Sequence record: PV933157.1
DNA from: Escherichia phage 24-32N
DNA: 64,000 nucleotides
Strand: one strand, 5' to 3'
Numbering within the stretch: position 1 is the first letter of the stretch; the number at the start of each line of letters is the position of its first letter. A program made the translations under genes and the position numbers. Shown piece by piece: positions 13,738-13,980 of the stretch. Under the pieces are notes generated by a model. It saw only the letters and a list, made by a program, of their open reading frames with translations, was not told the DNA's origin and did no database searches.

Positions 13738-13980
13738 ATGGAATCTTTAGCAGCAATCCTTGTTATGTTATTTGTATTAGCTGTATACCTTATCCCTACT
13801 ATCATTGCTTTTTCACGAGGCCATGCCTCTAAGTGGGGCATTGGTGTGCTTAATATCGTATTAGGCTGGTCTTTAGTATTCTGGGTAGTAGCACTGATTT
13901 GGTCACTGTCCAACAAAGGTCAGAACCAAGTTACAAATGTAACTGTTGTTCAAACCAATGGTGGCAGTAAAGCAGAGTAA
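13738..13980 (+). CDS. superinfection immunity-like small membrane protein (Imm family-like)
   Basis: LIPTIIAFSRGH...LNIVLGWSLVFWVVALIWSL matches recalled Imm_superinfect pattern; two TM helices; ATG 13738 after RBS. Confidence 0.55.
   Translation: MESLAAILVMLFVLAVYLIPTIIAFSRGHASKWGIGVLNIVLGWSLVFWVVALIWSLSNKGQNQVTNVTVVQTNGGSKAE

Follow-up and report, generated by a model that had tools for sequence, protein, structure and literature searches.

An Imm-family membrane protein in the N4-type backbone of a Gamaleyavirus as a candidate block to superinfecting phage DNA

What does a relative of the T4 superinfection immunity protein Imm do in a phage that is built on the plan of N4? Imm of phage T4 is a small inner-membrane protein that excludes the DNA of superinfecting T-even phages from the cytoplasm (T4 record NC_000866; PMC6832632), and a 2026 preprint describes it as binding the tape measure protein gp29 at its helical-bundle domain, thereby blocking formation of the conduit across the inner membrane (bioRxiv 10.64898/2026.03.06.709160). 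In N4 and N4-like phages, by comparison, the superinfection exclusion system is stated to be uncharacterised (PMC12642591), and a published exclusion test for an N4-like phage was not found in the literature. The question is raised by a short gene, referred to below as gp27.1, in a 64,000-nucleotide stretch of Escherichia phage 24-32N (sequence record PV933157.1; hereafter the window). Over 3 kb surrounding the gene, identity is 96% to Escherichia phage IME11 and approximately 80–95% to some 60 further Gamaleyavirus records; by these matches, the source phage is a Gamaleyavirus (Schitoviridae), that is, a G7C/IME11-like, N4-like podovirus.

The gene occupies positions 13738..13980 on the plus strand, from an ATG at 13738 to a TAA at 13978–13980, and encodes a protein of 80 amino acids, MESLAAILVMLFVLAVYLIPTIIAFSRGHASKWGIGVLNIVLGWSLVFWVVALIWSLSNKGQNQVTNVTVVQTNGGSKAE. 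An original prediction, made from the nucleotide sequence, had placed at this open reading frame a membrane protein with two hydrophobic helices and two characteristic strings; the coordinates, both helices and both strings, LIPTIIAFSRGH at amino acids 18–29 and LGWSLVFWVVALIWS at amino acids 42–56, were all verified. A ribosome-binding site, AGGA, can be read directly from the sequence at 13728..13731 (plus strand), 6 nucleotides 5' of the ATG, and lies within the 36-nucleotide leader that separates the start codon from a hairpin at 13675–13701. Both the AGGA and the ATG are unchanged across 8 Gamaleyavirus relatives. A longer reading of 92 amino acids, which would begin at the in-frame GTG at 13702 and add 12 residues, is unlikely: this GTG is GAG in phage ECBP1, abuts the 3' arm of the hairpin and has no ribosome-binding site. 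Since the GTG is not conserved and touches the hairpin arm, the ATG at 13738 is taken as the start. The upstream GTG and the segment that follows it (13702–13737) recall the alternative 94-residue start of T4 Imm in the 2026 preprint (bioRxiv 10.64898/2026.03.06.709160). Among the sequences from 8 Gamaleyavirus phages, the pooled pN/pS over codons 1–61 is about 0.10 and the pairwise dN/dS values for the first 61 codons mostly fall between 0.03 and 0.2. gp27.1 is a real gene, maintained by purifying selection on its core.

The original prediction had also pointed to a resemblance to the T4 Imm family, to be checked by a Pfam search. That search was positive: the protein matches PF14373 (Imm_superinfect) with 61.9 bits and an E-value of 5e-17, against a gathering score of 27.9 bits, and the match spans profile positions 1–42 of 42 at amino acids 16–57. 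T4 Imm itself, taken from NC_000866, scores 58.2 bits with the same model. In PHROGs, gp27.1 matches phrog_1039, 'immunity to superinfection' (1.5e-29), and a direct BLASTP alignment with composition adjustment between gp27.1 and T4 Imm gives 30% identity and 52% positives over 61 amino acids (E 4e-10). The substitutions R33A and W50A are reported to weaken exclusion by T4 Imm (bioRxiv 10.64898/2026.03.06.709160, 2026 preprint), and these two residues align with R27 and W44 of gp27.1. R27 is invariant in the homologue alignment; W44 is replaced by leucine in some homologues at approximately 55–60% identity. On the basis of these data, gp27.1 is homologous to T4 Imm, and sequence analysis could not place it in the family more firmly.

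Searches of other collections were negative or uninformative. The PADLOC defence library yielded 0 families at E ≤ 1 for gp27.1, NCBIfam gave no usable match, and sequence searches of the PDB with gp27.1 and with T4 Imm produced no match. An AlphaFold2 model of gp27.1 had no significant match in BFVD (best E 3.1), which is expected given that the protein is a simple helical hairpin.

The architecture was examined in terms of hydropathy and of the same model. The Kyte-Doolittle profile contains two hydrophobic stretches, at about amino acids 3–25 and 33–58, with a peak of 2.6 in the second, and the AlphaFold2 model, which was built with 38 homologues and has a mean pLDDT of 71, consists of helices at residues 2–26 and 32–61 followed by a disordered tail at 62–80. 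The protein can accordingly be laid out as an N-terminal hydrophobic helix (about amino acids 2–26), a basic loop, SRGHASK, with two basic residues plus one histidine, a second hydrophobic helix that bears conserved W/G motifs, and a polar, variable and disordered tail (amino acids 59–80) in which N, Q, T and S are abundant; the PF14373 domain extends over amino acids 16–57. The positive-inside rule agrees with a predicted inner-membrane placement of gp27.1 in which the N terminus faces the periplasm. T4 Imm (gene imm, UniProt P08986; PF14373, IPR016410) is of similar size, 83 amino acids compared with 80, and shares with gp27.1 the succession of a hydrophobic helix, a basic loop, a W/G-rich hydrophobic helix and a polar tail, in the same order, the C-terminal tails themselves being unrelated.

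The tail is the variable part of gp27.1 within the genus as well. Among otherwise near-identical genes, the segment 13918–13977 (amino acids 61–80; compared with loci L010 of St11Ph5, 781–852, and L011, 601–804) occurs as two unrelated alleles, one of which, present in the window, belongs to a protein of 80 amino acids that ends in NQVTNVTVVQTNGGSKAE, whereas the other gives a protein of 83–86 amino acids that ends in TTIVNVGSGNQYNVSQTSSKAE and is found in phage St11Ph5 and many metagenomic relatives. The occurrence of two unrelated tails on near-identical genes points to recombination within gp27.1. In the record of phage Bp4, a 1-nucleotide deletion shortens the protein to 67 amino acids; given that the reading frame is intact in PD38, which is almost identical to Bp4, this frameshift may have arisen as an error of sequencing or be a mutation private to Bp4.

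As a sequence finding, gp27.1 is not new: the same protein is present in public records, and its orthologues have been labelled 'immunity' since at least 2013, so that the identification made here repeats existing annotation. The protein is 100% identical to that of phage vB_EcoP_PE007, and 52 phage records encode a protein with at least 90% identity to it, with most other orthologues (those of IME11, Bp4, St11Ph5, EC1-UPM and others) at 92–99% identity. The RefSeq name of the orthologue is 'immunity to superinfection'; in the Bp4 and St11Ph5 submissions it appears as 'gp27.1, putative membrane immunity protein, similar to Imm of phage JS98', and the EC1-UPM genome paper of 2013 gives the orthologue with IPR016410 (PMC3853248). 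Nearly all of the Gamaleyavirus records found have retained the gene. In IME11, Bp4, St11Ph5, EC1-UPM and PE007, the orthologue has the same position between gp27 and gp28 and the same flanking hairpins, and nothing of substance sets the window protein, which has the 80-amino-acid tail allele, apart from them.

Outside the genus, the closest relatives of gp27.1 are the Imm proteins of Acinetobacter phages with genomes of approximately 45 kb (52–55% identity over the 60-amino-acid core) and those of Klebsiella T4-like phages with genomes of approximately 165 kb (44% identity over the same core), which differ from the Gamaleyavirus set in both host and genome size. That the nearest outside relatives reside in such phages suggests that imm reached the N4-like lineage through horizontal transfer. 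All near relatives of gp27.1 come from virulent or temperate phage genomes. In one Klebsiella phage, vB_Kpl_K57alpha1.2 (OY979416.1, 49984–51423), the sole feature recorded across the imm region is a 10-kb pseudogene on the opposite strand, named 'virion RNA polymerase', which looks like an annotation error.

The arrangement of the locus bears on the same point. The imm gene lies in a rightward nucleotide-metabolism and replication block, between the genes for dCTP deaminase and ThyX, and this dCTP deaminase–ThyX–rIIA block corresponds to N4 genes gp26–gp33. Its upstream neighbour, an open reading frame of 69 amino acids at 13455..13664 (plus strand), lies outside the imm unit, bounds the insertion site on the left and can be identified as the gp27 homologue, as its orthologue is named 'gp27' in St11Ph5 and its position, after the dCTP deaminase gene, is that of N4 gp27. 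The downstream neighbour, an open reading frame of 129 amino acids at 14096..14485 (plus strand) and likewise outside the imm unit, shares a C-terminal motif with N4 gp28, and in Bp4 its orthologue is described as 'similar to gp28 from N4'. N4 gp28 itself, a protein of 80 amino acids, was considered as a counterpart of Imm and rejected; its match is to the C terminus of the 129-amino-acid frame downstream of imm. In St11Ph5, a 144-nucleotide open reading frame alone is annotated at the place of the gp28 homologue (compared locus L010, 853–1380), where the sequence diverges just after the common terminator, and St11Ph5-like records carry a RefSeq HNH endonuclease near the gp28 position, which makes this a second variable spot beside imm.

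The intergenic sequences on both sides of imm are rich in potential RNA structure. The hairpin 3' of the gp27-homologue stop codon, at 13675..13701 (plus strand), has the sequence AAATAGCCCAGC-ACA-GTTGGGCTATTT, with 12 pairs and a 3-nucleotide loop; the predicted RNA fold of 13660–13740 has a free energy of −23 kcal/mol (z = −3.2). Among 8 relatives, its stem is unchanged except for one A-to-G substitution that keeps a G-U pair, and the loop is variable. A hairpin of different sequence is present at the analogous position in N4. The element at 13675–13701 is probably a transcript-end or processing hairpin. A second hairpin follows the imm stop codon at 13987..14010 (plus strand; GAAGTATCCCT-AAG-AGGGTACTTC) and forms part of the inserted unit. 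It exists in a second version in relatives, AAGCATCAT...GTGATGCTT, in which the pairing is kept, and compensatory double changes are seen at two pairs among 8 relatives; the fold of 13981–14095 has a free energy of −34 kcal/mol (z = −4.2).

The right edge of the insertion is marked by a perfect 7-bp stem with a 3-nucleotide loop at 14010..14026 (plus strand), CTGGAAG-TTG-CTTCCAG (CTGGAAGTTGCTTCCAG), which, in an alignment with the N4 intergenic region, corresponds to the short N4 palindrome TGGAAATTCC. The idea that this hairpin is a promoter of the type used by the N4 virion RNA polymerase was set aside, as such hairpins show no clear enrichment in the window (8 compared with 4.8 ± 1.9 in shuffles). 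Further downstream, a terminator scan identified an intrinsic-terminator-like hairpin at 14053..14081 (plus strand), AAGCCCAC-CTAACCC-GTGGGCTT followed by TTTTTT, that is invariant among relatives and aligns with the N4 terminator ahead of gp28. Since this terminator is common to the window phage and N4, it is older than the insertion. An Rfam search of 13400–14300 returned a chance-level match only (Trp_leader, E 0.76). The short intergenic stretches beside imm are no less conserved than the coding sequence of the neighbouring gp27 homologue and fold into four hairpins, for which terminators, RNA-processing sites or phage-polymerase promoter elements are candidate roles.

When the two regions are laid side by side, N4 has the order gp27, hairpin, palindrome TGGAAATTCC, terminator and gp28, and the window has the gp27 homologue, hairpin, leader, imm, second hairpin, CTGGAAGTTGCTTCCAG, the terminator shared with N4 and the gp28 homologue. 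An Imm homologue is absent from the N4 genome in tblastn searches with gp27.1 and with T4 Imm, of which one gave no match at E ≤ 1 and another a chance match at best (E 0.25). By this comparison of sequences, imm and one hairpin, together approximately 300–340 bp, are an insertion in the hairpin/terminator region between gp27 and gp28 of an N4-type backbone. The left edge of the insertion was set by reading the sequences; a MAFFT pairwise alignment put the N4 hairpin inside imm. The lack of a homologue in N4, combined with the clear anatomy of the insertion, identifies imm as an acquired accessory gene.

What the acquired gene does can be approached by analogy with T4. We regard it as fairly probable that gp27.1, an unfused Imm-family protein whose gene is inserted in an N4-type backbone, blocks the entry of later phage DNA at the inner membrane. 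To judge from gene position alone, the protein would be made soon after the first infection, before the late genes; it would insert in the inner membrane in the orientation reported for T4 Imm, its N terminus facing the periplasm and its basic loop the cytoplasm, and would prevent any phage that adsorbs later from opening a DNA conduit across that membrane, so that the incoming genome is kept outside the cytoplasm. The genetic setting is similar in the two systems: both proteins are encoded by virulent coliphages, among pre-late genes (the timing of gp27.1 again following from its position) and beside genes of nucleotide metabolism. Unlike T4, the carrier of gp27.1 is a podovirus with an ejection apparatus of the N4 type and without a tape measure protein. 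A block of the DNA conduit at the inner membrane is also proposed, as for T4 Imm, for gp15 of HK97 and other exclusion proteins directed at the tape measure protein (bioRxiv 10.64898/2026.03.06.709160). The window phage lacks the target class of the HK97 gp15 type, the tape measure protein, and the likeness to these proteins is one of proposed mode of action.

The family name alone is no proof of this function, since PF14373 is very large, with 8222 cluster representatives at E ≤ 0.001, and also occurs in multi-domain proteins, fused there to unrelated domains (LemA/TPM, zinc-ribbon and SHOCT/DUF4429 modules). The domain may therefore be a general membrane module, and literature searches on the family and the gene turned up genome annotations and genomic surveys but no functional test of an Imm homologue outside T4. 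The lack of the gene in N4, the leucine that replaces W44 in some homologues and the negative PADLOC search likewise count against the exclusion reading. It could be argued from the size of the family and its fusions that gp27.1 is a PF14373 membrane module with some other role, such as protection of the envelope (resistance to lysis from without) or membrane housekeeping. Compatible with such a role are the link between T4 Imm and resistance to lysis from without, discussed together with 'secondary traumatization' (PMC6832632), and the fact that the phage has no tape measure target. However, gp27.1 has the stand-alone phage architecture of T4 Imm, of approximately 80 amino acids, together with the residues tested there, unlike the fused architectures, and the restriction of its near relatives to virulent or temperate phage genomes likewise speaks against a role of this kind, which we consider unlikely.

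Small membrane proteins of phages with two helices are often holins. gp27.1, being small and having two hydrophobic helices and a polar tail, might on this ground be a lysis-timing protein (a holin, an antiholin or a lysis-inhibition factor) rather than a block to DNA entry. Imm 'reportedly molecularly resembles a holin', and imm mutants are partly defective in lysis inhibition or show a shortened one (PMC6832632); N4-like phages, for their part, show lysis inhibition (PMC12642591) and carry homologues of rIIA and rIIB. Nevertheless, the window contains a lysis cassette of the N4 type (homologues of gp60–63) at 60344–62024 on the minus strand, approximately 46 kb from gp27.1; gp27.1 matches no holin-annotated family in Pfam or PHROGs; and lysis inhibition occurs in N4 despite the absence of gp27.1 (PMC12642591). 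A function in the timing of lysis is, in light of these observations, distinctly improbable. That gp27.1 is a decaying or functionless passenger left by horizontal transfer, as might be read into an insertion that N4 lacks, the 67-amino-acid protein of Bp4 and the two unrelated versions of the tail, is highly improbable considering the strong purifying selection (pN/pS 0.10), the invariant ribosome-binding site and start codon, the retention of the gene in nearly all Gamaleyavirus records found and the intact frame in PD38.

If gp27.1 is indeed an Imm-type block to DNA entry, the question of its target arises. A homologue of T4 gp29 was not found in the window by tblastn (best E 0.68), so the target cannot be a tape measure protein of the phage itself. 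What the window does encode is an ejection cassette of the N4 type, with homologues of gp51–53 at 48656–53621, in which the gp51 homologue occupies 48656–50509. In N4, the outer-membrane channel has been assigned to gp52 and the periplasmic tunnel to gp51, and the inner-membrane complex to the C terminus of gp51 together with the N-terminal domain of the virion RNA polymerase gp50 (PMC13434306). Because the phage has no tape measure protein of its own, the candidate targets would be this N4-type inner-membrane ejection complex, in which case gp27.1 would exclude phages of its own kind, or the tape measure proteins of competing myo- and siphoviruses, in which case it would exclude other phages. 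We advance only as a tentative and rather doubtful proposition, conditional on T4 Imm acting through the tape measure protein, that gp27.1 acts on the structurally unrelated N4-type complex or solely shuts out myo- and siphoviruses, and that it would also be the first identified component of superinfection exclusion in N4-like phages.

If T4 Imm works via the tape measure protein and gp27.1 targets the N4-type complex, the Imm fold would be an adaptable blocker of very different DNA conduits. gp27.1 offers a cheap experimental lead to the action of Imm in phages without the sole known Imm target. Lysis inhibition in N4-like phages is itself believed to depend in part on superinfection exclusion.

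Two further observations concern genes elsewhere in the window. In the region 9607–10703, the window phage is without the gp18-like gene that RefSeq names 'superinfection exclusion' (in the N4 record, similar to P22 gp17) and that is carried by both N4 and the close relative IME11. Homologues of IME11_54 and IME11_52 are also absent from 9607–10703, which contains an unrelated open reading frame of 86 amino acids at 9897–10157. From these absences and the unrelated frame, as far as the compared sequences indicate, the block of small genes that separates the head-decoration gene from the ATPase gene is a mosaic. The second observation relates to the ejection cassette. The gp53 homologue (880 amino acids; 50979–53621, minus strand) is 54% identical to N4 gp53 and belongs to a PHROGs family, phrog_2220, that is listed as of unknown function. 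It has three hydrophobic segments, at amino acids 663–681, 694–712 and 740–758, the first two of which overlap the 'hydrophobic knot' (residues 670–716) that, in the structure of N4, plugs the tail tube (PMC13434306).
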